Of a stretch of DNA of 64,000 nt, positions 10,436 through 64,000 are shown one piece after another. Source of the stretch: Naegleria gruberi (lineage: Eukaryota); NCBI GenBank assembly GCA_000004985.1, contig GG738899.1; one strand, written 5' to 3'. The notes under the pieces are model-generated. The model saw only the letters and a list, made by a program, of their open reading frames with translations. It was not told the DNA's origin and searched no databases. The position numbers and the translations under genes are program-made. Each line of letters begins with the position of its first letter. Within the stretch, counting starts at the first letter, position 1.

Positions 10436-10508
10436 GCCCCGCTAGCTCAGTCGGTAGAGCGTTGGACTTTAAATCCAACGGTCGTGGGTTCGAGCCCCAC
10501 GTGGGGCG
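10436..10508 (+). tRNA. tRNA-Lys-like gene with anticodon UUA (ochre-suppressor-like)
   Basis: 73-nt canonical cloverleaf with acceptor gccccgc/gtggggc. The D-arm (gctc-agtcggta-gagc) is identical to eukaryotic tRNA-Lys(UUU). The anticodon stem ttgga/tccaa is perfectly paired, and the loop is c-t-T-T-A-a-a, so positions 34-36 are TTA. The T-arm is gtggg-ttcgagc-cccac. A/B boxes are intact, and a T-run (ttgttatttttttc) starts 3 nt downstream. Confidence 0.7.
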
Positions 10509-26641: not shown

Positions 26642-26713
26642 TCCCGTGTAGTCCAATGGCTAGGATACCTGGCTTTCACCCAGGAGGTCCGGGTTCAATT
26701 ACCGGCATGGGAG
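26642..26713 (+). tRNA. tRNA-Glu (UUC), second copy, with T-stem mismatch (possible pseudo-tRNA)
   Basis: It is identical to 1513-1584 except for c to a at T-stem position 61 (...ttcaattAccgg...). That change breaks the conserved G53-C61 pair. About 45 nt of upstream flank and 12 nt of downstream flank are also shared with copy 1. Confidence 0.7.
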
Positions 26714-29176: not shown

Positions 29177-32100
29177 ATGCCAGAAGTAATTACCAGCAGC
29201 ACTGTTGGTAGAACAGCTTTCGGTCCCAACCTTTCCTTGTTGAAGGTAAGTTATTACTCATTTACATCTCGCAGTAATTTTTTTTTGACTTTCTAATAAC
29301 AAACAAACTAAGAACTTCAAAATGAACATGTTGAAAATAATATATAGGGTGGTACAATCTCTCAAACAATTGTTGGTTTAATAGTTTCTGCTTCTGTTGT
29401 TGCCTCTCTCGTTGTTACCATTGTAATGATTAGTGTTGGTGCAGGTGTTCAAAATCCAACATTGAAACCAGACTATTATGAACTTTACAAAAAGACACCA
29501 TCAAAACTCTATCCTCTTCTCAATGATATTGATCCAAGAGGTGGTAATTTGACAATTTTAAATGTTACTCAACCATTACATGGTAAAGCTGTGTTATCTT
29601 CTGCTGGCATGGTTATTTATACAAGTATTGGTTCTTATGCTGGTAATGATACTTTCGAATATTCGGTTACTAATGGATGGACAACTGCGACTGAACATGT
29701 TTATCTTAGTATTTTGAATCGTGCTCCAGAAGTAGTTGACATGACATATACTGTTAATAAGAATTCAAAGAAAAATTCATTTGATTTATTTGGATATGAA
29801 AGTGAAATGGGTGCTAAAATTAAGGATATTGACGGTGATGATTTATCTATTACTGACATTATTCTAGTTTCTCCTAATGTTGGTAGTTTAATCTCATTCG
29901 ATCAAAATTACTTGTACTATACTCCTGCTTATGGTTTTAATAATATTGAATTACTTAACTATACAATCTCAGATGGTTATGCCAATGTTTCAGGTGTCAT
30001 TACTATTAATGTTGCCAATGATAAACCAACAGCTGAACCTGACACTTATACCATTACAAAGAATGCTTTGGGTACTTTTAATATTCTAGATAATGATTTT
30101 GATATTAATGGTGATAACATTTCAATTACCACTGCTGGTTTAGGTTCATCTGGTGTTGTTTTAATTTCCTCTGATAATTCAAATATCGAATATATTCCAA
30201 AGCCATTTGTAGCTCCATATACTGATGCTTTTGAATATGAAATCACTGATGGAGCTTTGACAAGTTCTAGTTATGTTTTTGTAAAGATTGTCAATTCTCC
30301 TCCAACTGTTTCTGATAAGGTTTTCAATGTTGCAAAGAATTCAAAGAATAATCTTTTAGATTTGACATTCTCTGATCCAGATGTACTTGATACTGTTACC
30401 TTGACAGCTGTTAGTAAGCTTGCTCGTGGTAATTCCTCATTGTCTGTTACTAGCTCAATGGCATCTGTTTATTATCCAACAGGTGACTTTTTACAAGTTA
30501 AGAAGAATTTGTACTCTCTTGTTTATACACCAGATCAAGGTGTTATTTATACTGATTCCTTTAAGGTCAAAGTTAGTGATGGTGTGGATGTTGCTTATGC
30601 CACCATTACTATTAATGTAGTTCCTTCTCCTCCTGTTCCTGTTAATGATACTGTCACTTGTCAAAAGAATGGACAAGTCTCTCTTGATGTTATCAGTAAT
30701 GATTATAGTGCTTCTGGTGATGTTTTGAAATTGAATTTTGCATCATCTACTTCCAATTTTGGTGGTAAACTTGTTAAGATTGATGATAATAATGTAAAAT
30801 ATGAGCCAGCTAAAGGATTCCTTGGTCAAGATGAAGCTCAATACATTGTTATTAACACTAACACTGATGGATCTAGTGAAGGTACTTTCAATAGAGAGGG
30901 ATATGTTCTTGTTAATGTTGTGAACTCACCTCCAGTTGCTGTTCCATTAACTTTGACAGTTTCAAAGGGTTTGACAAGTGCTCTTAATTTATTAAGAGAT
31001 AGTTATGATCCAAATGGTGATTCTATTAATTATAATAGTATTGCTAAGAGTACTTATGGAGTTTCATTGTCCTTCACTTCTGGTAATGCAAATGTTAATT
31101 ATGCTGCCTTGTCATCTGTCTACGTTGATTATGTTGACTTTACTGTTGTTGATATTGATGGAGCTATTTCACAAGTTGCTACAGCTACCATTAACGTTGT
31201 TAATGATGCTCCTGTTCCAGTTGATGATACTGCTGCTGTTTCTTGGAATAGAAGTATTGTCATTGATGTTTTGGCAAATGACAAGGATGTTAATGGTGAT
31301 TCTCTAAGTGTTAAGAGTGTTAGTTATACTTCTAATAATGGTGCAACTGTTACTGTTCATCAAGGTGGTAAAACTGTTCTCTACACTCCAAAGGATGGAT
31401 TTGTAGGAAATGATACCTTCTCCTATGTTTGTTTTGATGGAATTGATTCATCTGTCACTTCTGGATTGGTGACAGTTGTTGTTAGTAATACTGCTCCATC
31501 TACTTCTCCAGTTACTGTTAGTGTTCATTGGAGAGATTCTTCAGTTATTATTCCAGTATTGACCTATGCCAGTGATATTGATGGTGATTCTCTTCATGTT
31601 GAATCTTTCACACAAGGATCAAAGGGATCTGTTTCACGTGTTACACTTACTGATGGTACAGATGGTTTGCAATTTACTACTTCTGGGTCAAATAACTATG
31701 TTGGAAGTGATTCTTTTACTTTTGTTGTTAGTGATTATGGTAAATCAAGTGTTGGAAGTGTCAACATTCAAATTACTGACACTGCTCCTGTTGCCAATGC
31801 TGATTCATTCTCAATGCATTGGAGATCAACTGATAATGTTTTATCTGTTCTTGCTAATGATGTCGATGCTAATATTGATCCAATTACTGTCAAATCATTT
31901 ACTAAACCACAAGGTTTTACTGGAACACTTGTCAATGTTAATTCTCATTTGACATTTACACCAAGTGCTTCAAGTGTTGGTACTCAAACATTTACTTACA
32001 CTGCTACTGATGGTCCATCAACAAGTAATGATGCTACTGTCACATTAACTGTTACCAATAAGGATATTCCACAAGATAAGACAATTTCCAAGACTGTTCA

Positions 32101-35100
32101 CTGGTCAACTCAATCAACTGGTACTACTATTACCATTTTCTCAAGTGCCAATCCAGTTGATACTGATGGTGATTCATTGAGTATTTCTTCTACTCTTGTT
32201 TCTCCTTCAAGTGGTTCAATTACAATTTCCAATTCTGATATTCCAAGTGTTGTTTACAAACAAAATACTGGATTCCTTGGAACTGATACTTTCAAGATTC
32301 AAATCTCTGATGGTGCTGCTACTGCTATTGTTACCATTTCTGTTACTGTTTATGATAATGCTCCATTGTCTAATGATATTTCTGAAAATAGACATTTTAC
32401 TGAAGTTAGTAATGGATATACTAAGAATGCAATTTCATTCTTCAATGTTACTGATATCGATTCTCAAGATAGTGTCACTGTTAAGGATGCTACTGTTGGA
32501 TCTTGTGGTTCTGTCTCAAAGACTTCTTCAACTGTCACATTCACAAGTAATAAGGGAAGTGTTGGTGTTTGTACTGTAACTATCACATTTACTGATGGTC
32601 TATTGAATTCTGTATCCAAGTGGAATGTCAATGTTCAAAATCAAGATCCTTCTGCCGCACCAATTAGCACTACCGTTCACTGGAGTAAGAGTCAAGCTAT
32701 TATTGACATTATGTCAACTTTGTCTGATGCTGATAATGATGCCTTGTCTTATTCAGTTTCATCTTATGATTCCACATTCGGTAGCCCATCTATCAATTCT
32801 GATAAGGCTCTCGTATGGACTCTTCCACAAACACCAAAATTAGGAACAACTCAAATTGTAATTTCATTCACAGATGGATGGGTCAGTAAGACTGCTTCTT
32901 ATCCATTGATTGTTCAAAACGTTGCACCAACTGCAGTTGCAAAGACAATTTCATCAAAGTGGTCTGCATGTCTTTCTGGTATTACTATTGATATTTTGAG
33001 TGAATGCTCAGATAATGACGGAGATAGTTTGTCATTTGACAGTACTACGCCAATTGTTACTGCTCCAGCTCAAGGAAGTGCTTCAATTGTTTCTTCAAAG
33101 GTTTATTACAAACAATCAACTGCTTCTGTTGGTTCTTATTCCATTACTTACAAGATTACTGATGGTATTCAAACTTCATCAAACTCTATTACTGTCAATT
33201 GTGAAGATAATGCTCCTGTTGCTAATGCTGATTCAATTACTGTTAATTGGAATACCTCTGATGTCGATATTACTATTTTGTCTAACGATATTGATTCAGA
33301 TAATGATATTCTTTCTGTCACTAATCTTTCAGCTGTCAGTGAAGGTTCTTTAACTAATTTAGGTACTTTTGTTAAATATACTTTGAAGAAACCACCAACC
33401 CTTTCTGACAAGACATTCACCTATAAGGCATTCGACGGAGCTCTCTATTCCTCTGCTGCAACTGTCACTGTCAAAGTTGTCAATGCCAACAAGCCACAAA
33501 TTAGTGATCAAAGTACAACTGCTCACTGGAGAACTGTCAAGGATGGTGTTTCATACACTGTCTATGATACTCTTACCGATGCTGATGGTGATTATTATTC
33601 ACTTTCATTTGGTAGTGGTTCAAGTGCTTATTGTTCACTTATTGACCTTTCGAATGGTATTAAGGGTGTTAAATATACTAGAAATGCATTCGATTCCACT
33701 GATTCTTGTAAAGTAGTTCTCTCTGATGGATTCAGTACAAGTGCTGCCACATTAACAACCAACTCTTACAATAATGTTCCAGTTGCTGCCAACTTTACTT
33801 TAGATTATTCTGGTGGTAATATTCAATATGGTATTTCAATTGATGTTTTGTCATCTGCTACAGATGCTGATATTCAAGATGTTCCATTCCTTTCCATTTT
33901 AAGTGTTGGAAATTCCAAATTATATGGTAGTGAAGCTGCAAATATTGTAAATGGACAAGTTTTCTATTTCCCAGATCAATCATTAGTTAAAGCATTGGGT
34001 ACTGATACTGTTGCTTATACTATTAGTGATGGTTTATCAACATCTATTGGTTATCTCACTATTAACATCAAGTCAACTTCTCCATCCAGTACTGAACAAT
34101 ATTACAATGTTCATTTTAGATATTCAAGTGTTGGTTATGTTTTCACACCATTGACAAAGATTGCAGATGCCACTAAACTTGATACTACTGTTGTTCAAGG
34201 AAGTGAACCAAATCAAGGTGGTTCAGTTGTTGTTTCTAGTGTTGATGAAAAGACAGTTACTTACAAACCATCTGGTTCCTATTTAGGTAATGAAATTTTC
34301 AAGTTAAAGTATTATACTGCTAGTGGTAGTAGTGATATTACTTTTACAATGAATATTTATGATACTGCTCCAATTGCTCAATCACTTTCTGGTTCAGTTC
34401 ATTTTGGTAAATCAACAACATTCAATTTAACTGCTTCAACTTCAGATGCTGATCCATTGGATGTCAATAATTTGTCATTCTCAATTACTGGTCAACCATC
34501 TCAAGGATCTTTGAGTGTTTCATCAAATATTGCCACTTATACTGCATCATCAACTGTTGGAACCTATTCTGGTATTTACAGAGTTTCAGATTCTATGAAA
34601 TCTTCTACTGGTTCTATTACTTTGACTGTAACTAATACTGTTCCTACTTCACAAACTAAAACCATTTCAGTTCCTTGGAGAACTTTCAAGGCAGGTTTTA
34701 ATATTGATGTCTTGAATTTAGCACCAGCTGATTTTGATAATGATGGAGATGAGTTGAGTTTGGTTTCAATTGCTCTTCAACCATCAGTTGGTTCAGTAAC
34801 TAAATTGGATAGTAAGAGAGTTAGTATTGTTGGTTCAGGAAACTTTGTTGGTTCACTTACATTCAAATACATTGTTAGTGATGGTGCCTCAAATGGTCAA
34901 GTCACAACCACAGTTAACTTGAATGTTTACAACACTGCTCCAGTTGGTATTCCAGATAAGCTCTCTACCCACTGGAATGTTGCCTCAAAGACATTGAATG
35001 TTATTGCCAATGACACTGATGCTGAATCAGATCCTTTAACTGTCACATCCGTTTATGGATCTTTAGCTTCAACTGCTCCAACTTTCACTTCTGATAGTAT

Positions 35101-38100
35101 TGTCTATTATCCAAAGAATGCTCCATCAACAGATACAGTTTATTATACAGTTTCTGATAATGTTGCTACATCTATTTCATATGTCACTGTTACTGTAACT
35201 AACACTGCTCCAACTACAACTTCTCAATCATTTGTTGGTTCTTGGTCTTCAGCTAAGAATGGTTTAACATTTGACGTTGTTTCTACTTCTTCTGATGCTA
35301 ATGGAGATTCATTGTCATTGCAATCATGCTCTTCATCAGTTACTTCCTCTCAAGGTAATGTCACTTGTTCTGGAAATGTCAAATTCACTCCAGCCAGTGG
35401 TTTCGTTGGTAGTATCAACCCAATCAGTTATATTATCACTGATGGTAGAGACACTGTCACTGGTACTGTTTCCATTACAATTTTGAATAATGCTCCTACT
35501 GCTAATACTACAAATACTTTCAGATATCATTGGAGAAGTGTTTTGAGTAATACTGTTATTGATCTTTCTTCATATCTCAAAGATGCTGATGGTGATGCTG
35601 TTACTTTGACAGCTGTCACAAAGACACTTGTTGGTGTTGCTTCTCTTGGATCAGGAAATACCATTAACTATAAGGTTAATAGTGCTTACACTGGTACTGA
35701 TTCAGTCACTGTCTCATTCACTGATGGATGGTCAACTTCAAGTGCCACTTTCAATATTGTAATTTACAATAACGCTCCTGTTGCTCAAAATATCATTACT
35801 TCAACTCACTTGGCAACTTTGAACATTCCTGTGATTGGATCTGGTTCAAATCAACCAACAGATGCTGATGGAAGTGTTGATCTTAATAATTTAGTCATTT
35901 CTTCATTCTCAAATCCATCAGTTGGAAGTGTTTCTTTGAGTGGTGATAAGAAATCATTCACATTCACTAACGTTGCTGGAAATGTTGCCACTCAAACATT
36001 TACCTATGTCGTTTCAGATGGAAAGGATACTTCTGCATCAAAGACTGTTACAATTTCCATTACAAACAATGCACCATCTGCAACTCCAATTACCATTTCT
36101 AAACATTGGGCTACAGTACAAGGTGGATTAGATATTAATTTATTGTCTGTTGTAACTGATTCTGATGGTGATTCTCTTTCAATTACTTCATTCACTCAAA
36201 CAAATAATGGAGCTGTTTCTTCAATCAATTCAACATCTGTCAAGTATATTCCAACACCATTGACTGCTGGTTTCACAACTTCATTCACCTATTCAGTTTA
36301 TGATGGTTATACTACAATTTCAAATACTGTTACAATTTCAATTACCAATACACCACCTGTTGCAGTTGATGATACCATCACTGTTCACTGGACCAATAAT
36401 ACATTGTATTTGAAACCAGTTGTGAATGATTATGATTTGGATAATGATTACATTTATATTAACAAATTGTATCCATCTCAATTTATGAATGCCTATGCAT
36501 CAATGGGTAATTATATCATCATTTCAAAGGGAACAACTATTGTTAATAACTTTGCAAGTGTTGTCGTTCCTGGAAGCGTTGCAACTGCTGGATTTGTTAA
36601 TCAAGTTCTTCAACCAACTGGCTCACTAAATGTTAATAATGCTGCTCAACTTGCCATTGTTAATGCTGCTACTAATTTGTATCAATCATTGAGTTTATAT
36701 ACTTGTACTGCTTCATTAGATCAATCATTCCCATCTTCAAATGTTTTGAGTTTCTCACCTGGTGTCTATTGTTTCCCACAAGGTTTATCTGGTTCTGGTA
36801 CCATCTTGTTGAGTGGTTCAGGTCTTTACATTTTCAGTATTTCCACTAATTTGAATGCTAACTTCCAATGGTCATTCACAAATGGAGCTAGTGCTTCAAA
36901 TGTTTATTGGTTGGTTGGTGCTGCTGGTATTTCAGGAACTTTCTATGGTCATGTTTTGAGTAATGGTCAACTCAATTTCAATAATGTTGTTCAAAATGGT
37001 GTTATTATGAGTTTAGGATCAAATTCAATGAGTTTGAATAGTGTTACTTTTGGTTCCGTTGTTATTCCAACTGGACAAACTGCCTTGGAATTACAATCTG
37101 ACAAGTTGACTGTCTATTATAAGAATACTTTCATTAATGGACCAGCAACTGACTCATTCCAATACACAATTACTGATCAAATTGCCACTTCTAATGTTGC
37201 TATTGTCAAATTGGTCTTTACCAATACTGCTCCAGTTGCCACTTCATTCTCAGCTGGTAAAGTTACATGGAAAAATACCTTAACAACTGCAAGTGTTGTT
37301 TCCAAGTATTGTTCTGATGCTGATAAGGATTCATTGAGTTTATTCGGAGTTACTCAAGGTAAATACGGAACTACTACAGTTACCGATTCTACAAGTGGTA
37401 CCATTGTTTATACACCAAGTAGTTCAATTTCCTATACCTCTGTTGATTCCAATGGAGCTAGTTATGTAACTGATCAAATTACTTTTGGATGTTATGATGG
37501 AGCTCAAGTTACATATAACACATTCTCTGTTGTCGTTTACAATACAGCTCCAAAGAGTGCTTCTAAATCACTTAGTGTTCAAAGAGATACTTCAAATCCA
37601 ACTGTTACATTGAATGATTTGTTGGTTGGTGCTACAGATGCTGAGGGTGATTCAATTTCTGTATCAAGTGTTTCAATGATTTCACAAAATACTGGTGCTT
37701 CTGTCTTGTTATCATCCAATACTGCTAAACTCACTTACATAACTTCATATTTAGGTTCAATTGTCTTTTCATTCACTTTAACTGATGGTCAATTGAGTTC
37801 AACTTATAATTATAATGTCACTATTACTGGTGCTCCATTCTATTGTGTTGATTATACCATTAGTACTACCAAAGATTCCTCTGCTGTCACTTTCGAAACT
37901 GATTTAAAGTCTAAATTGTCAAGCTATTGTGTTAATGATGTTTGTACTTTGGCTCTTGCTTCAACTGCATCACTCAATGGAGTTGGTTCAATTGCTGCCA
38001 ATGGTAATAACTTGTTGACATATACTCAAAATTCCAAGTCATCATCAAATGGAGAATCCTATTCCACTTACTCATATTCTAATAGGGCAGGTCAAAGCGC

Positions 38101-40450
38101 AATTTGTAAGATTATCATTAATCAACCAAATAATGCACCAACTGTCTATGATTATACTTATAGTTACTCAATTAGTAGAGCTTCTAATGATTATGTTACA
38201 TTTGATTATGTTAGTTTATCATCCTCTGATGATCCAGATGCTTCTGACTCAATTGTATTGAGTAGTATTTCAAGTGTTGGTACATGTACAACTAGTTCTA
38301 TCAGTAGTTTGTCAATTACTAGTGATAACCAAATCAAATTCTTGAGAAATCCATCATTCATTGGAAGTTGTTCATTCTCTTTGGTTGTTTCTGATAGTGA
38401 TTTGAGAAATCCAATCTCTAAAACTGCAAAAATTACAATCAATGCCATTTCTTCTCCACCAGTTGCTGTCAATGATGCTGTTTCTACAACCTATAACACA
38501 TATATTGATATTCCAGTTTCCACATTACTTGGAAACGATTATGATTCACTTGGTGGTACATTCTCATTCACTGGTATTAATTGCCCAACAGGTGATTCAA
38601 CTTATTGTACAGCAGGCACTCCAACTATTCTCAATCCATCTGATCCTGCAAATACAAGAATCATCAGAGTTCAACCAATTAAGGGATCTTGTAATTCTCA
38701 AAAATTCGTTTATGGTATCAAATCTGATTCTGATTCAACAACTGCCACAGCTATTGTTACAGTTTCTTATACCAAATGTACATGTTCTTTGAATATGGAT
38801 ATTGTATTTGTTTTGGATGGTAGTTCATCTATTGATGCAGGAAATTGGATTAACATGCAAAACTTTGCATCCAATTTAACTGTTGGATTTGGTTCAAACA
38901 TTTCACCAACTGCCACCAAGATTGGTATCATTCAATTCTCTACAACAACTGTAACTCACTTGGATTTGAAAGATGGTACTTCCAAGACAGCTGTTCTTAA
39001 TGCCATTTCATCAGCTGGTCAACTCAAATCCAGTACCAACTCAATTTTAGGTATTAACAATGCTGTTTCAATGGTTTTAAGTCAAGGTAGAAAGGATATC
39101 ACTAGAAAACTCTTAATTCACATTACAGATGGTATGTCCAATTTACCTTGTGGTATGGGAGCTTGTCGTGCCATGTATGGTAGTGATAAGTCATTATATG
39201 GATCTGTTCCTAATTATTGTAAGTCACCTCGTTTCCCAGGTACTGATGCAACAATATGCTCATGGAATGAACCACTCAGTAGATGTAATCCTTGTTCTGA
39301 TGCTACTCTTAGATCAACTGATTTGAATTCTTGGACAGTTGGAGGTGCTTCAAATCCAGAAAAATCAACTTATGGATCTATTTGGAATTGGAGACAATTA
39401 GTTGTAGGTATTGGTGATGGTTTGAGTTCTGGGTATGGACAACTTCAAATTCAAAAGATGAATTACGATCCAAACAATTTAATTGTTGTCGATTGGTCTG
39501 ATTTGAGCTCTGTTTATCAAACTGTTATTGATAATAGTTGTAATCTTGTCGATTCCACTCAAACCAACGTTCTTGTTCCACTTTCAAGTTCTGGATATTC
39601 TATTCAATATCTTGGAAAGACATTGTCCAAATCAAGTTACCTTAATTATGAAGCAACCATTTCAACATTCACTTATCGTGTTAGTGTCTCTTCATCAGCA
39701 CCTGCTTTACAAAGATTTACCTTAGGATTACAACCTGGTTACAATCAAGATAACTTTGTAAATTATGATCCATACTTCCCAGTTTTCATTGGTCAAGACA
39801 CTACCACTAATTTGAATGGTTTCACTTTCTTATCACTTCCAAATTCATATACAATTGCAGCTGGTTCATCAGATACCTATACATTGAGTATTGCTGGTGA
39901 TATTCCTGAAGGTGTTATTACTTATGGTATGTCGGGTGGTTCACAATACACACAAGGAACTGTTAAGGGACCAAGTGGAGTGATCAACTCAACCACAGTT
40001 GCTCTTCCACCAAATATTAATTACGGTGATGATTCAAGTTATAGAACTACCTATTGTTCCTCAACCAAATGTTATTTCTTTACCAAGATGAATTATGCCT
40101 ATCGTATTGAAGCAATGAGTAAGATTTGTAAATATTGGTCTGCCAATGCAACACTAGTTCAAATTCAATCATCCACTGAAAAGACCACACTCATCAATAA
40201 TGTTTTACCTTACGATGAGAGTGCTACCTTCTTCTTAGGTACTAAGGATTCCGATATTGCAGTTGGATCAACAACTACATGGCAAGATGGTACATCCATG
40301 TCCTCCTATACAAATTATCAAAGCAAACAACCTGGTTCCTACACTATTATTTATGCTTCATATAATGCTAATTCTCCAACTGGTACTTGGTGGAAGGGAG
40401 GTAGTTATGATACCAACACTCAATATTTACTTTGTCAATTTAAGAAATAA
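29177..40450 (+). CDS. Giant (about 3700 aa) membrane-anchored adhesin-like protein: tandem bacterial-type cadherin-like/VCBS repeats, ice-binding-like (DUF3494) domain, vWA domain and C-terminal C-type lectin domain
   Basis: Exon 1 is 29177-29245 (MPEVITSSTVGRTAFGPNLSLLK, then gtaagt). After a 102-nt intron it rejoins in frame at 29348 (GGTISQTIVGLIVSASVVASLVVTIVMISVGAG, a TM anchor), continuing as one uninterrupted 11.1-kb exon to the TAA at 40448. The ectodomain has about 25-30 tandem 95-100-aa repeats of consensus ..AP.A.(D/N)...TV......(I/L)(D/N)VL.ND.D..GD.L.(I/V)......G.......V.Y.P..GF.G.D.F.Y...DG......V.I.V.N. Named domains are annotated separately below. Confidence 0.8.
36485..37100 (+). 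other. Ice-binding-like (DUF3494/IBP-1 family) domain within the giant adhesin
   Basis: The region reads ...AAQLAIVNAATNLYQSLSLYTCTASL...LSFSPGVYCF...GTILLSGSGLYIFSISTNLNANFQWSFTNGASASNVYWLVGAAGISGTFYGHVLSNGQLNFNNVVQNGVIMSLGSNSMSLNSVT. This follows the DUF3494 pattern A..DL..AY..L....CT...L.....L.PGVY.F......G.L.LD..G....FIFQ.GS.L.......V.L.NGA.A.NVFWQVGS.A.......F.G.IL.....T......NGR.LA. Confidence 0.55.
38805..39150 (+). other. von Willebrand factor type A (vWA) domain within the giant adhesin
   Basis: It has the MIDAS-type start DIVFVLDGSSSIDAGNW. This is followed by ...IGIIQFSTTTVTHLDLKDG...LLIHITDGMSN, which fits the DxSxS...T...D vWA topology. Confidence 0.7.
40040..40447 (+). other. 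C-type lectin-like domain at the C-terminus of the giant adhesin
   Basis: The region reads CYFFTKMNYAYRIEAMSKICKYWSANATLVQIQSSTEKTTLINNVL...FFLGTKD...WQDGTSMSSYTNYQSKQPG...WWKGGSYDTNTQYLLCQFKK. This matches the CTLD pattern C..YF.....W.EA...C.......L..I.S..E..F.......WIGL.D....W.W.DG....Y.NW...QP.......C......W....C.....YICE. Confidence 0.65.
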
Positions 40451-54440: not shown

Positions 54441-54636
54441 TTTTTATTATTTGAATTTTATTATTACTACTTGGTTGACGACGTATTTTGTTTATCATCA
54501 TACACGTGTTTTTATTTCGAAAATAATGACAATAGGTTTTATTACACTCTTACAACATTGATGATTTATTAGAAAAGCCTAATTGNNNNNNNNNNNNNNN
54601 NNNNNNNNNNNNNNNNNNNNNNNNNNNNNNNNNNNN

Positions 54637-56201: not shown

Positions 56202-59200
56202 NNNNNNNNNNNNNNNNNNNNNNNNNNNNNNNNNNNNNNNNNNNNNNNNNNNNNNNNNNNNNNNNNNNNNNNNNNNNNNNNNNNNNNNNNNNNNNNNNNN
56301 NNNNNNNNNNNNNNNNNNNNNNNNNNNNNNNNNNNNNNNNNNNNNNNNNNNNNNNNNNNNNNNNNNNNNNNNNNNNNNNNNNNNNNNNNNNNNNNNNNNN
56401 NNNNNNNNNNNNNNNNNNNNNNNNNNNNNNNNNNNNNNNNNNNNNNNNNNNNNNNNNNNNNNNNNNNNNNNNNNNNNNNNNNNNNNNNNNNNNNNNNNNN
56501 NNNNNNNNNNNNNNNNNNNNNNNNNNNNNNNNNNNNNNNNNNNNNNNNNNNNNNNNNNNNNNNNNNNNNNNNNNNNNNNNNNNNNNNNNNNNNNNNNNNN
56601 NNNNNNNNNNNNNNNNNNNNNNNNNNNNNNNNNNNNNNNNNNNNNNNNNNNNNNNNNNNNNNNNNNNNNNNNNNNNNNNNNNNNNNNNNNNNNNNNNNNN
56701 NNNNNNNNNNNNNNNNNNNNNNNNNNNNNNNNNNNNNNNNNNNNNNNNNNNNNNNNNNNNNNNNNNNNNNNNNNNNNNNNNNNNNNNNNNNNNNNNNNNN
56801 NNNNNNNNNNNNNNNNNNNNNNNNNNNNNNNNNNNNNNNNNNNNNNNNNNNNNNNNNNNNNNNNNNNNNNNNNNNNNNNNNNNNNNNNNNNNNNNNNNNN
56901 NNNNNNNNNNNNNNNNNNNNNNNNNNNNNNNNNNNNNNNNNNNNNNNNNNNNNNNNNNNNNNNNNNNNNNNNNNNNNNNNNNNNNNNNNNNNNNNNNNNN
57001 NNNNNNNNNNNNNNNNNNNNNNNNNNNNNNNNNNNNNNNNNNNNNNNNNNNNNNNNNNNNNNNNNNNNNNNNNNNNNNNNNNNNNNNNNNNNNNNNNNNN
57101 NNNNNNNNNNNNNNNNNNNNNNNNNNNNNNNNNNNNNNNNNNNNNNNNNNNNNNNNNNNNNNNNNNNNNNNNNNNNNNNNNNNNNNNNNNNNNNNNNNNN
57201 NNNNNNNNNNNNNNNNNNNNNNNNNNNNNNNNNNNNNNNNNNNNNNNNNNNNNNNNNNNNNNNNNNNNNNNNNNNNNNNNNNNNNNNNNNNNNNNNNNNN
57301 NNNNNNNNNNNNNNNNNNNNNNNNNNNNNNNNNNNNNNNNNNNNNNNNNNNNNNNNNNNNNNNNNNNNNNNNNNNNNNNNNNNNNNNNNNNNNNNNNNNN
57401 NNNNNNNNNNNNNNNNNNNNNNNNNNNNNNNNNNNNNNNNNNNNNNNNNNNNNNNNNNNNNNNNNNNNNNNNNNNNNNNNNNNNNNNNNNNNNNNNNNNN
57501 NNNNNNNNNNNNNNNNNNNNNNNNNNNNNNNNNNNNNNNNNNNNNNNNNNNNNNNNNNNNNNNNNNNNNNNNNNNNNNNNNNNNNNNNNNNNNNNNNNNN
57601 NNNNNNNNNNNNNNNNNNNNNNNNNNNNNNNNNNNNNNNNNNNNNNNNNNNNNNNNNNNNNNNNNNNNNNNNNNNNNNNNNNNNNNNNNNNNNNNNNNNN
57701 NNNNNNNNNNNNNNNNNNNNNNNNNNNNNNNNNNNNNNNNNNNNNNNNNNNNNNNNNNNNNNNNNNNNNNNNNNNNNNNNNNNNNNNNNNNNNNNNNNNN
57801 NNNNNNNNNNNNNNNNNNNNNNNNNNNNNNNNNNNNNNNNNNNNNNNNNNNNNNNNNNNNNNNNNNNNNNNNNNNNNNNNNNNNNNNNNNNNNNNNNNNN
57901 NNNNNNNNNNNNNNNNNNNNNNNNNNNNNNNNNNNNNNNNNNNNNNNNNNNNNNNNNNNNNNNNNNNNNNNNNNNNNNNNNNNNNNNNNNNNNNNNNNNN
58001 NNNNNNNNNNNNNNNNNNNNNNNNNNNNNNNNNNNNNNNNNNNNNNNNNNNNNNNNNNNNNNNNNNNNNNNNNNNNNNNNNNNNNNNNNNNNNNNNNNNN
58101 NNNNNNNNNNNNNNNNNNNNNNNNNNNNNNNNNNNNNNNNNNNNNNNNNNNNNNNNNNNNNNNNNNNNNNNNNNNNNNNNNNNNNNNNNNNNNNNNNNNN
58201 NNNNNNNNNNNNNNNNNNNNNNNNNNNNNNNNNNNNNNNNNNNNNNNNNNNNNNNNNNNNNNNNNNNNNNNNNNNNNNNNNNNNNNNNNNNNNNNNNNNN
58301 NNNNNNNNNNNNNNNNNNNNNNNNNNNNNNNNNNNNNNNNNNNNNNNNNNNNNNNNNNNNNNNNNNNNNNNNNNNNNNNNNNNNNNNNNNNNNNNNNNNN
58401 NNNNNNNNNNNNNNNNNNNNNNNNNNNNNNNNNNNNNNNNNNNNNNNNNNNNNNNNNNNNNNNNNNNNNNNNNNNNNNNNNNNNNNNNNNNNNNNNNNNN
58501 NNNNNNNNNNNNNNNNNNNNNNNNNNNNNNNNNNNNNNNNNNNNNNNNNNNNNNNNNNNNNNNNNNNNNNNNNNNNNNNNNNNNNNNNNNNNNNNNNNNN
58601 NNNNNNNNNNNNNNNNNNNNNNNNNNNNNNNNNNNNNNNNNNNNNNNNNNNNNNNNNNNNNNNNNNNNNNNNNNNNNNNNNNNNNNNNNNNNNNNNNNNN
58701 NNNNNNNNNNNNNNNNNNNNNNNNNNNNNNNNNNNNNNNNNNNNNNNNNNNNNNNNNNNNNNNNNNNNNNNNNNNNNNNNNNNNNNNNNNNNNNNNNNNN
58801 NNNNNNNNNNNNNNNNNNNNNNNNNNNNNNNNNNNNNNNNNNNNNNNNNNNNNNNNNNNNNNNNNNNNNNNNNNNNNNNNNNNNNNNNNNNNNNNNNNNN
58901 NNNNNNNNNNNNNNNNNNNNNNNNNNNNNNNNNNNNNNNNNNNNNNNNNNNNNNNNNNNNNNNNNNNNNNNNNNNNNNNNNNNNNNNNNNNNNNNNNNNN
59001 NNNNNNNNNNNNNNNNNNNNNNNNNNNNNNNNNNNNNNNNNNNNNNNNNNNNNNNNNNNNNNNNNNNNNNNNNNNNNNNNNNNNNNNNNNNNNNNNNNNN
59101 NNNNNNNNNNNNNNNNNNNNNNNNNNNNNNNNNNNNNNNNNNNNNNNNNNNNNNNNNNNNNNNNNNNNNNNNNNNNNNNNNNNNNNNNNNNNNNNNNNNN

Positions 59201-62200
59201 NNNNNNNNNNNNNNNNNNNNNNNNNNNNNNNNNNNNNNNNNNNNNNNNNNNNNNNNNNNNNNNNNNNNNNNNNNNNNNNNNNNNNNNNNNNNNNNNNNNN
59301 NNNNNNNNNNNNNNNNNNNNNNNNNNNNNNNNNNNNNNNNNNNNNNNNNNNNNNNNNNNNNNNNNNNNNNNNNNNNNNNNNNNNNNNNNNNNNNNNNNNN
59401 NNNNNNNNNNNNNNNNNNNNNNNNNNNNNNNNNNNNNNNNNNNNNNNNNNNNNNNNNNNNNNNNNNNNNNNNNNNNNNNNNNNNNNNNNNNNNNNNNNNN
59501 NNNNNNNNNNNNNNNNNNNNNNNNNNNNNNNNNNNNNNNNNNNNNNNNNNNNNNNNNNNNNNNNNNNNNNNNNNNNNNNNNNNNNNNNNNNNNNNNNNNN
59601 NNNNNNNNNNNNNNNNNNNNNNNNNNNNNNNNNNNNNNNNNNNNNNNNNNNNNNNNNNNNNNNNNNNNNNNNNNNNNNNNNNNNNNNNNNNNNNNNNNNN
59701 NNNNNNNNNNNNNNNNNNNNNNNNNNNNNNNNNNNNNNNNNNNNNNNNNNNNNNNNNNNNNNNNNNNNNNNNNNNNNNNNNNNNNNNNNNNNNNNNNNNN
59801 NNNNNNNNNNNNNNNNNNNNNNNNNNNNNNNNNNNNNNNNNNNNNNNNNNNNNNNNNNNNNNNNNNNNNNNNNNNNNNNNNNNNNNNNNNNNNNNNNNNN
59901 NNNNNNNNNNNNNNNNNNNNNNNNNNNNNNNNNNNNNNNNNNNNNNNNNNNNNNNNNNNNNNNNNNNNNNNNNNNNNNNNNNNNNNNNNNNNNNNNNNNN
60001 NNNNNNNNNNNNNNNNNNNNNNNNNNNNNNNNNNNNNNNNNNNNNNNNNNNNNNNNNNNNNNNNNNNNNNNNNNNNNNNNNNNNNNNNNNNNNNNNNNNN
60101 NNNNNNNNNNNNNNNNNNNNNNNNNNNNNNNNNNNNNNNNNNNNNNNNNNNNNNNNNNNNNNNNNNNNNNNNNNNNNNNNNNNNNNNNNNNNNNNNNNNN
60201 NNNNNNNNNNNNNNNNNNNNNNNNNNNNNNNNNNNNNNNNNNNNNNNNNNNNNNNNNNNNNNNNNNNNNNNNNNNNNNNNNNNNNNNNNNNNNNNNNNNN
60301 NNNNNNNNNNNNNNNNNNNNNNNNNNNNNNNNNNNNNNNNNNNNNNNNNNNNNNNNNNNNNNNNNNNNNNNNNNNNNNNNNNNNNNNNNNNNNNNNNNNN
60401 NNNNNNNNNNNNNNNNNNNNNNNNNNNNNNNNNNNNNNNNNNNNNNNNNNNNNNNNNNNNNNNNNNNNNNNNNNNNNNNNNNNNNNNNNNNNNNNNNNNN
60501 NNNNNNNNNNNNNNNNNNNNNNNNNNNNNNNNNNNNNNNNNNNNNNNNNNNNNNNNNNNNNNNNNNNNNNNNNNNNNNNNNNNNNNNNNNNNNNNNNNNN
60601 NNNNNNNNNNNNNNNNNNNNNNNNNNNNNNNNNNNNNNNNNNNNNNNNNNNNNNNNNNNNNNNNNNNNNNNNNNNNNNNNNNNNNNNNNNNNNNNNNNNN
60701 NNNNNNNNNNNNNNNNNNNNNNNNNNNNNNNNNNNNNNNNNNNNNNNNNNNNNNNNNNNNNNNNNNNNNNNNNNNNNNNNNNNNNNNNNNNNNNNNNNNN
60801 NNNNNNNNNNNNNNNNNNNNNNNNNNNNNNNNNNNNNNNNNNNNNNNNNNNNNNNNNNNNNNNNNNNNNNNNNNNNNNNNNNNNNNNNNNNNNNNNNNNN
60901 NNNNNNNNNNNNNNNNNNNNNNNNNNNNNNNNNNNNNNNNNNNNNNNNNNNNNNNNNNNNNNNNNNNNNNNNNNNNNNNNNNNNNNNNNNNNNNNNNNNN
61001 NNNNNNNNNNNNNNNNNNNNNNNNNNNNNNNNNNNNNNNNNNNNNNNNNNNNNNNNNNNNNNNNNNNNNNNNNNNNNNNNNNNNNNNNNNNNNNNNNNNN
61101 NNNNNNNNNNNNNNNNNNNNNNNNNNNNNNNNNNNNNNNNNNNNNNNNNNNNNNNNNNNNNNNNNNNNNNNNNNNNNNNNNNNNNNNNNNNNNNNNNNNN
61201 NNNNNNNNNNNNNNNNNNNNNNNNNNNNNNNNNNNNNNNNNNNNNNNNNNNNNNNNNNNNNNNNNNNNNNNNNNNNNNNNNNNNNNNNNNNNNNNNNNNN
61301 NNNNNNNNNNNNNNNNNNNNNNNNNNNNNNNNNNNNNNNNNNNNNNNNNNNNNNNNNNNNNNNNNNNNNNNNNNNNNNNNNNNNNNNNNNNNNNNNNNNN
61401 NNNNNNNNNNNNNNNNNNNNNNNNNNNNNNNNNNNNNNNNNNNNNNNNNNNNNNNNNNNNNNNNNNNNNNNNNNNNNNNNNNNNNNNNNNNNNNNNNNNN
61501 NNNNNNNNNNNNNNNNNNNNNNNNNNNNNNNNNNNNNNNNNNNNNNNNNNNNNNNNNNNNNNNNNNNNNNNNNNNNNNNNNNNNNNNNNNNNNNNNNNNN
61601 NNNNNNNNNNNNNNNNNNNNNNNNNNNNNNNNNNNNNNNNNNNNNNNNNNNNNNNNNNNNNNNNNNNNNNNNNNNNNNNNNNNNNNNNNNNNNNNNNNNN
61701 NNNNNNNNNNNNNNNNNNNNNNNNNNNNNNNNNNNNNNNNNNNNNNNNNNNNNNNNNNNNNNNNNNNNNNNNNNNNNNNNNNNNNNNNNNNNNNNNNNNN
61801 NNNNNNNNNNNNNNNNNNNNNNNNNNNNNNNNNNNNNNNNNNNNNNNNNNNNNNNNNNNNNNNNNNNNNNNNNNNNNNNNNNNNNNNNNNNNNNNNNNNN
61901 NNNNNNNNNNNNNNNNNNNNNNNNNNNNNNNNNNNNNNNNNNNNNNNNNNNNNNNNNNNNNNNNNNNNNNNNNNNNNNNNNNNNNNNNNNNNNNNNNNNN
62001 NNNNNNNNNNNNNNNNNNNNNNNNNNNNNNNNNNNNNNNNNNNNNNNNNNNNNNNNNNNNNNNNNNNNNNNNNNNNNNNNNNNNNNNNNNNNNNNNNNNN
62101 NNNNNNNNNNNNNNNNNNNNNNNNNNNNNNNNNNNNNNNNNNNNNNNNNNNNNNNNNNNNNNNNNNNNNNNNNNNNNNNNNNNNNNNNNNNNNNNNNNNN

Positions 62201-64000
62201 NNNNNNNNNNNNNNNNNNNNNNNNNNNNNNNNNNNNNNNNNNNNNNNNNNNNNNNNNNNNNNNNNNNNNNNNNNNNNNNNNNNNNNNNNNNNNNNNNNNN
62301 NNNNNNNNNNNNNNNNNNNNNNNNNNNNNNNNNNNNNNNNNNNNNNNNNNNNNNNNNNNNNNNNNNNNNNNNNNNNNNNNNNNNNNNNNNNNNNNNNNNN
62401 NNNNNNNNNNNNNNNNNNNNNNNNNNNNNNNNNNNNNNNNNNNNNNNNNNNNNNNNNNNNNNNNNNNNNNNNNNNNNNNNNNNNNNNNNNNNNNNNNNNN
62501 NNNNNNNNNNNNNNNNNNNNNNNNNNNNNNNNNNNNNNNNNNNNNNNNNNNNNNNNNNNNNNNNNNNNNNNNNNNNNNNNNNNNNNNNNNNNNNNNNNNN
62601 NNNNNNNNNNNNNNNNNNNNNNNNNNNNNNNNNNNNNNNNNNNNNNNNNNNNNNNNNNNNNNNNNNNNNNNNNNNNNNNNNNNNNNNNNNNNNNNNNNNN
62701 NNNNNNNNNNNNNNNNNNNNNNNNNNNNNNNNNNNNNNNNNNNNNNNNNNNNNNNNNNNNNNNNNNNNNNNNNNNNNNNNNNNNNNNNNNNNNNNNNNNN
62801 NNNNNNNNNNNNNNNNNNNNNNNNNNNNNNNNNNNNNNNNNNNNNNNNNNNNNNNNNNNNNNNNNNNNNNNNNNNNNNNNNNNNNNNNNNNNNNNNNNNN
62901 NNNNNNNNNNNNNNNNNNNNNNNNNNNNNNNNNNNNNNNNNNNNNNNNNNNNNNNNNNNNNNNNNNNNNNNNNNNNNNNNNNNNNNNNNNNNNNNNNNNN
63001 NNNNNNNNNNNNNNNNNNNNNNNNNNNNNNNNNNNNNNNNNNNNNNNNNNNNNNNNNNNNNNNNNNNNNNNNNNNNNNNNNNNNNNNNNNNNNNNNNNNN
63101 NNNNNNNNNNNNNNNNNNNNNNNNNNNNNNNNNNNNNNNNNNNNNNNNNNNNNNNNNNNNNNNNNNNNNNNNNNNNNNNNNNNNNNNNNNNNNNNNNNNN
63201 NNNNNNNNNNNNNNNNNNNNNNNNNNNNNNNNNNNNNNNNNNNNNNNNNNNNNNNNNNNNNNNNNNNNNNNNNNNNNNNNNNNNNNNNNNNNNNNNNNNN
63301 NNNNNNNNNNNNNNNNNNNNNNNNNNNNNNNNNNNNNNNNNNNNNNNNNNNNNNNNNNNNNNNNNNNNNNNNNNNNNNNNNNNNNNNNNNNNNNNNNNNN
63401 NNNNNNNNNNNNNNNNNNNNNNNNNNNNNNNNNNNNNNNNNNNNNNNNNNNNNNNNNNNNNNNNNNNNNNNNNNNNNNNNNNNNNNNNNNNNNNNNNNNN
63501 NNNNNNNNNNNNNNNNNNNNNNNNNNNNNNNNNNNNNNNNNNNNNNNNNNNNNNNNNNNNNNNNNNNNNNNNNNNNNNNNNNNNNNNNNNNNNNNNNNNN
63601 NNNNNNNNNNNNNNNNNNNNNNNNNNNNNNNNNNNNNNNNNNNNNNNNNNNNNNNNNNNNNNNNNNNNNNNNNNNNNNNNNNNNNNNNNNNNNNNNNNNN
63701 NNNNNNNNNNNNNNNNNNNNNNNNNNNNNNNNNNNNNNNNNNNNNNNNNNNNNNNNNNNNNNNNNNNNNNNNNNNNNNNNNNNNNNNNNNNNNNNNNNNN
63801 NNNNNNNNNNNNNNNNNNNNNNNNNNNNNNNNNNNNNNNNNNNNNNNNNNNNNNNNNNNNNNNNNNNNNNNNNNNNNNNNNNNNNNNNNNNNNNNNNNNN
63901 NNNNNNNNNNNNNNNNNNNNNNNNNNNNNNNNNNNNNNNNNNNNNNNNNNNNNNNNNNNNNNNNNNNNNNNNNNNNNNNNNNNNNNNNNNNNNNNNNNNN
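56202..64000. other. Assembly gap (N run)
   Basis: Continuous Ns to the end of the window. There is also a 51-nt N gap at 54586-54636. Confidence 1.

Follow-up and report, generated by a model that had tools for sequence, protein, structure and literature searches.

Very large bacterial adhesins offer the closest described parallel to the gene considered here. RTX adhesins such as MpIBP of Marinomonas primoryensis, AhLap of Aeromonas hydrophila and FrhA of Vibrio cholerae are megadalton-class proteins anchored at their N-terminal end. In such proteins Ca2+-stiffened beta-sandwich extenders hold a ligand-binding region off the cell (PMC7493085, PMC12077191, PMC10865825, PMC5550230), budding from 'split' Ig-like domains is the mark of the ligand-binding domains (PMC12077191, PMC10865825), and a vWFA domain with an insert in the middle of its fold can be present (PMC12077191). 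Bacterial tandem-95 proteins (NCBIfam NF012211; Big_9, Cadherin_4 and Cadherin_5) are a second point of comparison. Among amoebae, SibA-E of Dictyostelium are adhesion receptors, single-pass type I proteins with an extracellular vWA domain and a cytosolic C-terminal tail bearing talin-binding NPxY motifs (PMC9197732). Here we describe a gene of Naegleria gruberi (contig GG738899.1, assembly GCA_000004985.1) whose product resembles each of these in part. It occupies positions 29177 to 40450 of the 64,000-nucleotide (nt) stretch that we analysed, hereafter the window, and all of its features lie on the plus strand.

The spliced product of the two exons, 3,723 amino acids (aa) long, consists in order of a tail of about 29 residues, one transmembrane (TM) segment, 24 tandem-95 repeats, a 25th repeat split by a DUF3494 domain, five further repeats, a vWA domain, a beta-sandwich domain and a lectin-like tip. 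With moderate confidence, and reasoning from sequence, we propose that it is most likely a type II membrane protein acting as a long-reach, multi-ligand cell-surface adhesin. The tail would be cytoplasmic, the hydrophobic segment would hold the protein in the plasma membrane, and the 24 repeats would form a Ca2+-stiffened stalk, perhaps about 100 nm long or more. The distal domains would bind ligands, fastening the amoeba to its substratum, to bacterial prey or to other particles: the metal-ion-dependent adhesion site (MIDAS) of the vWA domain might serve metal-dependent protein or anionic ligands, and the beta-sandwich, lectin-like and DUF3494 domains possibly glycans. We infer this type II anchored, multi-ligand design from the nested DUF3494 domain and from the insert in the vWA domain, which reproduce features of RTX adhesins.

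A tandem-95 repeat array with a nested DUF3494 domain

Repeats 1-24 would make up the extender stalk (aa 59-2358; 29453..36352). Family hidden Markov models (HMMs) place the repeats in the tandem-95/Big_9 group with scores over the curated cut-offs, each tandem copy being about 95 aa long: Pfam Big_9 matches 25 stretches (1e-187; 610 bits, cut-off 23.6), Cadherin_4 matches 21 (1e-127; 417 bits), Cadherin_5 matches 17 (4e-111; 364 bits), and the NCBIfam tandem-95 model, tand_rpt_95, matches 19 (6e-130; 424 bits, cut-off 90). An HMM made from the protein itself finds about 30 units at a spacing of roughly 95 aa. An earlier note, made from the letters of this DNA alone, had counted about 25-30 bacterial-type tandem-95/cadherin-like repeats, and the Pfam and NCBIfam models bear this out; the consensus it gave holds for a subset of the repeats, many others beginning '..HW..' and not 'DD..TV'. 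The contrary outcome that it had named, eukaryotic cadherin or CNA_B repeats with no DUF3494, vWA or C-type lectin domain, is not what the HMM searches returned, and neither classical cadherin (PF00028) nor colossin-type CNA_B repeats are among the Pfam hits at E<=0.1. Acidic D..GD motifs are almost invariant in the repeats. Identity to the best-scoring repeat is 22-39%, and no DNA-level tandem repeat was detected in the locus, so that the array appears to be old and not an artefact of assembly. Beyond the split repeat lie repeats 26-30 (aa 2653-3162; 37235..38764), two of them clear and three, including the last, degenerate or Cys-containing. The homologous stretch of an environmental relative (P0001, below) has a precomputed Cadherin_4 hit that is marked weak at its contig.

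Repeat 25 is interrupted. Its N-terminal half (aa 2359-2395; 36353..36463) corresponds to positions 1-39 of the repeat HMM and its C-terminal half to aa 2588-2652 (37040..37234), and a DUF3494/Ice_binding-like domain (aa 2396-2587; 36464..37039) stands between them. Taken separately the halves score 24.1 and 35.3 bits; excision of the intervening 192 aa turns them into one repeat of 71.7 bits over HMM positions 1-79. Because excision restores a full repeat, the DUF3494 domain lies inside a repeat and not between repeats. Such nesting is plausible because the termini of DUF3494 adjoin, as in domains that bud from split domains: in the canonical fold the end adjoins the start (PMC11645318), and budding of this kind is known from bacterial adhesins (PMC12077191, PMC10865825).

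An embedded DUF3494/ice-binding-like domain had been claimed from the sequence alone, and PF11999 agrees, matching the isolated segment at 39.8 bits (cut-off 28.7) over profile positions 26-196 of 208; it is unlisted in a Pfam scan of the whole protein. Among solved ice-binding proteins the segment matches 7bwx (E 6.8e-6), 3wp9 (3e-4) and, weakly, 6bg8 (0.027). The last of these, from Shewanella frigidimarina, is deposited as 'Ig domain protein, group 2 domain protein' and is a precedent for DUF3494 joined to Ig-like domains. The segment is very divergent, with one homolog in a word-index search (E 6e-5) and no relatives in a metagenome scan. The nested domain is thus like those of DUF3494 (type 1) ice-binding proteins in exceeding the PF11999 threshold and aligning with solved members, and unlike them in being inserted in a repeat, not appended, in its high divergence, and in its mesophilic protist host.

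These matches raise the question of an ice adhesin comparable to MpIBP or to the S. frigidimarina DUF3494 protein with its tandem Ig-like domains. With ice as the ligand of DUF3494, the stalk would tether the cell to ice surfaces where soil or water freezes. In favour of this reading are the PF11999 assignment and the resemblance to proteins proven to bind ice, including the weak match to 6bg8, and ice adhesins on long repeat stalks do exist (PMC5550230, PMC5014055). Yet the domain is so divergent that it falls below detection in the whole-protein scan, the annotated paralog does without it, and the searched literature joins Naegleria and ice-binding only in a general perspective on protists in extreme environments. 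The mesophilic habit of N. gruberi, an amoeba of soil and fresh water, also counts against the idea. We know of no sequence motif in the DUF3494/Ice_binding family that foretells activity. Ice binding, for which family membership is the argument, seems unlikely, and a dedicated ice adhesin quite improbable.

Membrane anchor, distal domains and proposed role

The adhesin that we favour would be held in the membrane by a single signal-anchor at aa 30-56 (TIVGLIVSASVVASLVVTIVMISVGAG; 29366..29446). A hydropathy scan gives this segment a Kyte-Doolittle 19-residue mean of 2.66, the only one above 2 in the protein (runner-up 1.51), in keeping with the N-terminal membrane anchor that had been suggested from the sequence. 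Both the tail and the anchor are kept in the paralog. A type II orientation is suggested by the extracellular-type domains that follow the anchor. The 27 N-x-S/T sequons and the restriction of Cys to the distal domains argue for an extracellular character, and the protein is very rich in S, T and N.

The vWA domain (aa 3174-3421; 38798..39541), also anticipated by the earlier note, scores 73-77 bits against PF00092 (cut-off 23.8) over profile positions 1-116 of 174. Its MIDAS (DxSxS...T...D) is intact, formed by D3180, S3182, S3184, T3253 and D3284, and the two halves of the fold are separated by some 80 inserted residues, six of them Cys (aa 3288-3368). Among solved structures the domain comes closest to those of collagen VI and to integrin alpha I domains, and there is also similarity to a mussel thread matrix protein.

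The region that follows had been left as an unassigned beta-rich segment. It can now be placed in an un-annotated bacterial beta-sandwich family. This domain (aa 3431-3573; 39569..39997) has no match in Pfam and no sequence match in the PDB. In an exhaustive profile search its relatives are domains of about 125 aa from bacterial proteins (P0016, P0017, P0020-P0024, P0026-P0028), the majority of which have a hydrophobic N-terminus; the two carriers with names are a DUF11 protein of Caldisericota and a hypothetical protein of Thermoanaerobaculia. In some cases the bacterial domain occurs in tandem, and no Pfam model or solved structure covers the family. Two conserved Cys of the bacterial members are missing from the Naegleria copies. 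A word-index search with the profile of the domain gave three hits, and its nearest structural matches include carbohydrate-binding modules. We flag this unnamed domain family, common to Naegleria and bacteria, for further attention.

The C-terminal tip (aa 3584-3723; 40028..40447) is a divergent C-type-lectin-like domain. Pfam Lectin_C (PF00059) gives no hit to the 143-aa C-terminus at E<=10. A profile of the C-terminal region and its relatives, searched against 1.8 billion sequences, hits Pfam-confirmed Lectin_C proteins at 4e-5 to 3e-4, hhalign aligns it to a C-type lectin domain with 97.8% probability (E 8e-13), and its PDB profile hits are all C-type lectin domains, among them snake-venom snaclecs and DC-SIGN (best 1.5e-6). 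The alignment to C-type lectins stops two thirds of the way through the domain. It has no inner Cys pair, and P0001 does not share its last Cys. We read the C-terminal 140 aa, on these profile matches, as a C-type-lectin-like fold lacking the canonical sugar site. The label 'C-type lectin' used in the earlier note is thus right as to the fold detected by profile methods and too strong beyond that, given the missing Ca2+/sugar motifs and inner disulfide.

Some of these features would suit a different kind of protein, a structural component of a surface coat, matrix or cyst wall. The repeats would then be the fabric of an extracellular layer, and the partners cross-linked through the vWA and lectin-like domains would be the organism's own components. 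The kinship of the vWA domain with collagen VI and the mussel thread protein is typical of matrix assembly, and one might expect of a matrix protein the same S/T/N-richness and the same wealth of glycosylation sequons, as well as a lectin-like domain without sugar-binding residues. The conserved tail and TM anchor, however, suit a cell-attached receptor better, and the split-domain display of DUF3494 near the distal end is known from adhesins. We therefore regard a structural role as unlikely, if more credible than an ice adhesin.

The adhesin reading draws its strength from the comparison with RTX adhesins. An N-terminal anchor, a long run of extenders, a distal cluster of binding-type domains, budding from a split domain and an insert within the vWA fold are all seen in the Naegleria protein. 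It differs from them in having a eukaryotic TM anchor instead of a type I secretion signal, an intron, a lectin-like end, and extenders of the tandem-95/Big_9 type. The extender and split-domain plan is a likeness of layout and not membership: no GG.G.D (RTX nonapeptide) motif occurs anywhere in the protein, and its C-terminus is the lectin-like domain. With bacterial tandem-95 proteins it shares the repeat unit; its eukaryotic host, its metazoan-like vWA domain, its lectin-like domain and its anchor fall outside the definition of that bacterial family. With the Sib proteins it has in common a single membrane pass and an extracellular-type vWA domain, again in an amoeba. It does not belong to them, as its sole TM segment is N-terminal and it has no NP.Y motif; its topology would be opposite, its host belongs to another supergroup, and no sequence relationship was detected beyond the vWA domain.

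Several points weigh against the adhesin that we propose. Ca2+ binding by the repeats is assumed from what is known of the family, and the full ND.D..GD-like motif occurs only 4 times. The type II topology is proposed from the order of the domains, and the charges flanking the anchor are almost balanced. The lectin-like domain lacks the EPN/QPD and WND (Ca2+/sugar) motifs. DUF3494 is absent from the annotated paralog model (EFC44248), so either the family can do without this domain or the model lost it through splicing. An AlphaFold2 model of the beta-rich and lectin-like region, built on a two-sequence alignment, reached a pLDDT (predicted local distance difference test) of 41 and was discarded. 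The searched literature makes no mention of the gene identifiers, and we found in it no data on expression, localisation or binding. The earlier statement that the domain combination belongs to no named family is in line with this silence, and with a deposited protein described only as 'predicted protein'.

If the proposal is right, the gene is a concrete candidate for adhesion or prey recognition in Naegleria, an organism for which the searched literature identified no adhesion receptor gene and the papers listed in it refer only to 'integrin-like' adhesion proteins. The split-domain projection of ligand-binding domains used by RTX adhesins would then also operate in a eukaryotic membrane protein, and either module transfer or convergence could explain it. 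Among protists, giant mosaic surface proteins that carry repeats of bacterial type are no rarity, and the finding opens no long-standing question. The gene is uncharacterised, mis-annotated and already deposited, and its architecture is a fresh variant, in a protist, of the giant repeat adhesins.

Gene model and genomic setting

The gene begins with an exon of 23 codons (MPEVITSSTVGRTAFGPNLSLLK; 29177..29245), read from the sequence, that supplies most of the short, presumably cytoplasmic tail. A phase 0 spliceosomal intron of 102 nt follows (29246..29347; GTAAGT...TATAG). Removal of these 102 nt, from the GTAAGT donor at 29246, joins exon 1 in phase to position 29348. An in-frame TAG at 29345-29347, within a good 3' splice site (...TATATAG|GGT), shuts the frame upstream of exon 2, which is a single coding exon of 11,103 nt (3,700 codons plus stop; 29348..40450). 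The open reading frame (ORF) counted from its first ATG has 3,674 codons (29426..40450), and no other ORF reaching 150 aa occurs on either strand of the region; the frame itself is open from 29348. That first internal ATG falls within the hydrophobic segment, so a start there would cost the protein its sole targeting signal. The deposited model (P0012/EFC39496) begins with exactly the residues that exon 1 encodes, and the paralog (P0013) keeps the motif. Deposited model and paralog share this N-terminus, and the gene structure first read from the sequence, a short first exon, an N-terminal anchor and an unbroken 11.1-kb exon, stands.

The locus is the Naegleria gruberi gene NAEGRDRAFT_72752. 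Five neighbouring ORFs match N. gruberi proteins exactly, on a 331-kb scaffold. The amoebozoan, dictyostelid host suggested by the earlier note is rejected on these matches; the host is a heterolobosean. Around the gene lie others of an ordinary eukaryotic kind (Band 7, RCC1, TLDc, pseudouridine synthase, UFM1 ligase, NSRP1), and G+C content is even across the locus, the gene being like its neighbours. Eukaryotic neighbours, uniform G+C and the intron together exclude contamination.

A bacterial-type repeat module, and a deposited model at odds with the open frame, might lead one to ask whether this is a functional gene at all, and not a bacterial contaminant, a mis-assembled repeat or a decaying pseudogene. 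We find this scarcely credible. The other five frames hold 134-449 stops across exon 2, so an 11.1-kb stop-free frame in sequence of 34% G+C is far beyond chance. The intron, the eukaryotic-style anchor and the housekeeping genes on the same scaffold speak against a contaminant, as do the diverged repeats and the lack of a DNA-level tandem repeat against mis-assembly; and the paralog and environmental relatives have kept the C-terminal cassette.

Neither the ORF product nor the 3,723-aa product has an exact match among deposited proteins, since the open frame is not what was used for the deposited model. An exhaustive profile search found it: EFC39496.1 (XP_002672240.1, D2VUR0, NAEGRDRAFT_72752), of 2,816 aa. 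Its exon 1 and anchor are exactly those of our model. It is 907 residues shorter than the open frame, four stretches of 294, 651, 162 and 1,623 nt having been spliced out (at about 31253-31546, 31757-32407, 33203-33364 and 34307-35929). All four have lengths that are multiples of three, are in frame and free of stops, and encode tandem-95 repeats that score like the adjacent ones with the protein's own repeat HMM. The four annotated introns are very probably artefacts of prediction, and the single long exon appears to be the better model; the public gene model, on this reading 907 residues too short, is corrected here.

Relatives, origin and other features of the window

N. gruberi has a paralog of the gene, EFC44248.1 (NAEGRDRAFT_79811; annotated at 2,366 aa), which shares the tail, anchor, repeats, vWA domain, beta-sandwich and lectin-like domain. 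In the C-terminal region there is 52-58% identity to two environmental fragments, P0001 and P0014, the second of which covers the vWA and beta-sandwich domains only. Conservation in the paralog and in these fragments argues for selection on the C-terminal cassette. No other carrier of the beta-sandwich and lectin-like pair was found among 1.8 billion representatives by exhaustive profile search, and a metagenome scan with the cassette alignment found no relatives. A word-index search with the cassette returned one real relative and missed the protein deposited for this very gene; much more was learned from the exhaustive profile search.

A metagenome contig from ENA (L001, 1-5074, 35% G+C) carries a 58%-identical relative of the cassette that starts abruptly at about position 2531. 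An in-frame stop and what may be a 3' splice site precede it, and the genes upstream are unrelated. It may be a short, cassette-only paralog, a gene with a distant upstream exon, or a chimeric contig.

Where the modules came from can be approached through their best matches. Relatives of the repeats, the DUF3494 domain and the beta-sandwich are mainly bacterial, and the best matches of the vWA and lectin-like domains are metazoan, a pattern that fits the earlier idea of a bacterial core with eukaryotic additions and makes a horizontal origin of some modules plausible. No collinear bacterial donor was found. In a bacterial-genome scan with a single repeat, at one locus, the repeat was 36% identical to a protein of a Planctomycetaceae metagenome-assembled genome, a match that settles neither the direction nor the date of any transfer. 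More tentatively than for the adhesin role itself, we speculate that the gene might be a chimera, with tandem-95 repeats, a split repeat holding DUF3494 and a bacterial beta-sandwich fused to a eukaryotic-type vWA domain, a lectin-like domain and a type II anchor, and that it might be a counterpart of the RTX-adhesin design serving as a main receptor for substrate or prey.

Elsewhere in the window, runs of N mark a 51-nt assembly gap (54586-54636) and padding (56202-64000), so the usable sequence is about 56.2 kb and the window end is probably the scaffold end. Two tRNA-Glu(TTC) genes on the plus strand (1513-1584 and 26642-26713) lie 25 kb apart and differ by one base. A further tRNA gene, unrelated to this pair (10436-10508, plus strand; Rfam 70.8 bits), has according to ARAGORN the anticodon TTA, which would decode the UAA stop codon. 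Its body resembles that of a tRNA-Lys(TTT), with one anticodon base changed; a suppressor tRNA and a mutated copy are both conceivable.

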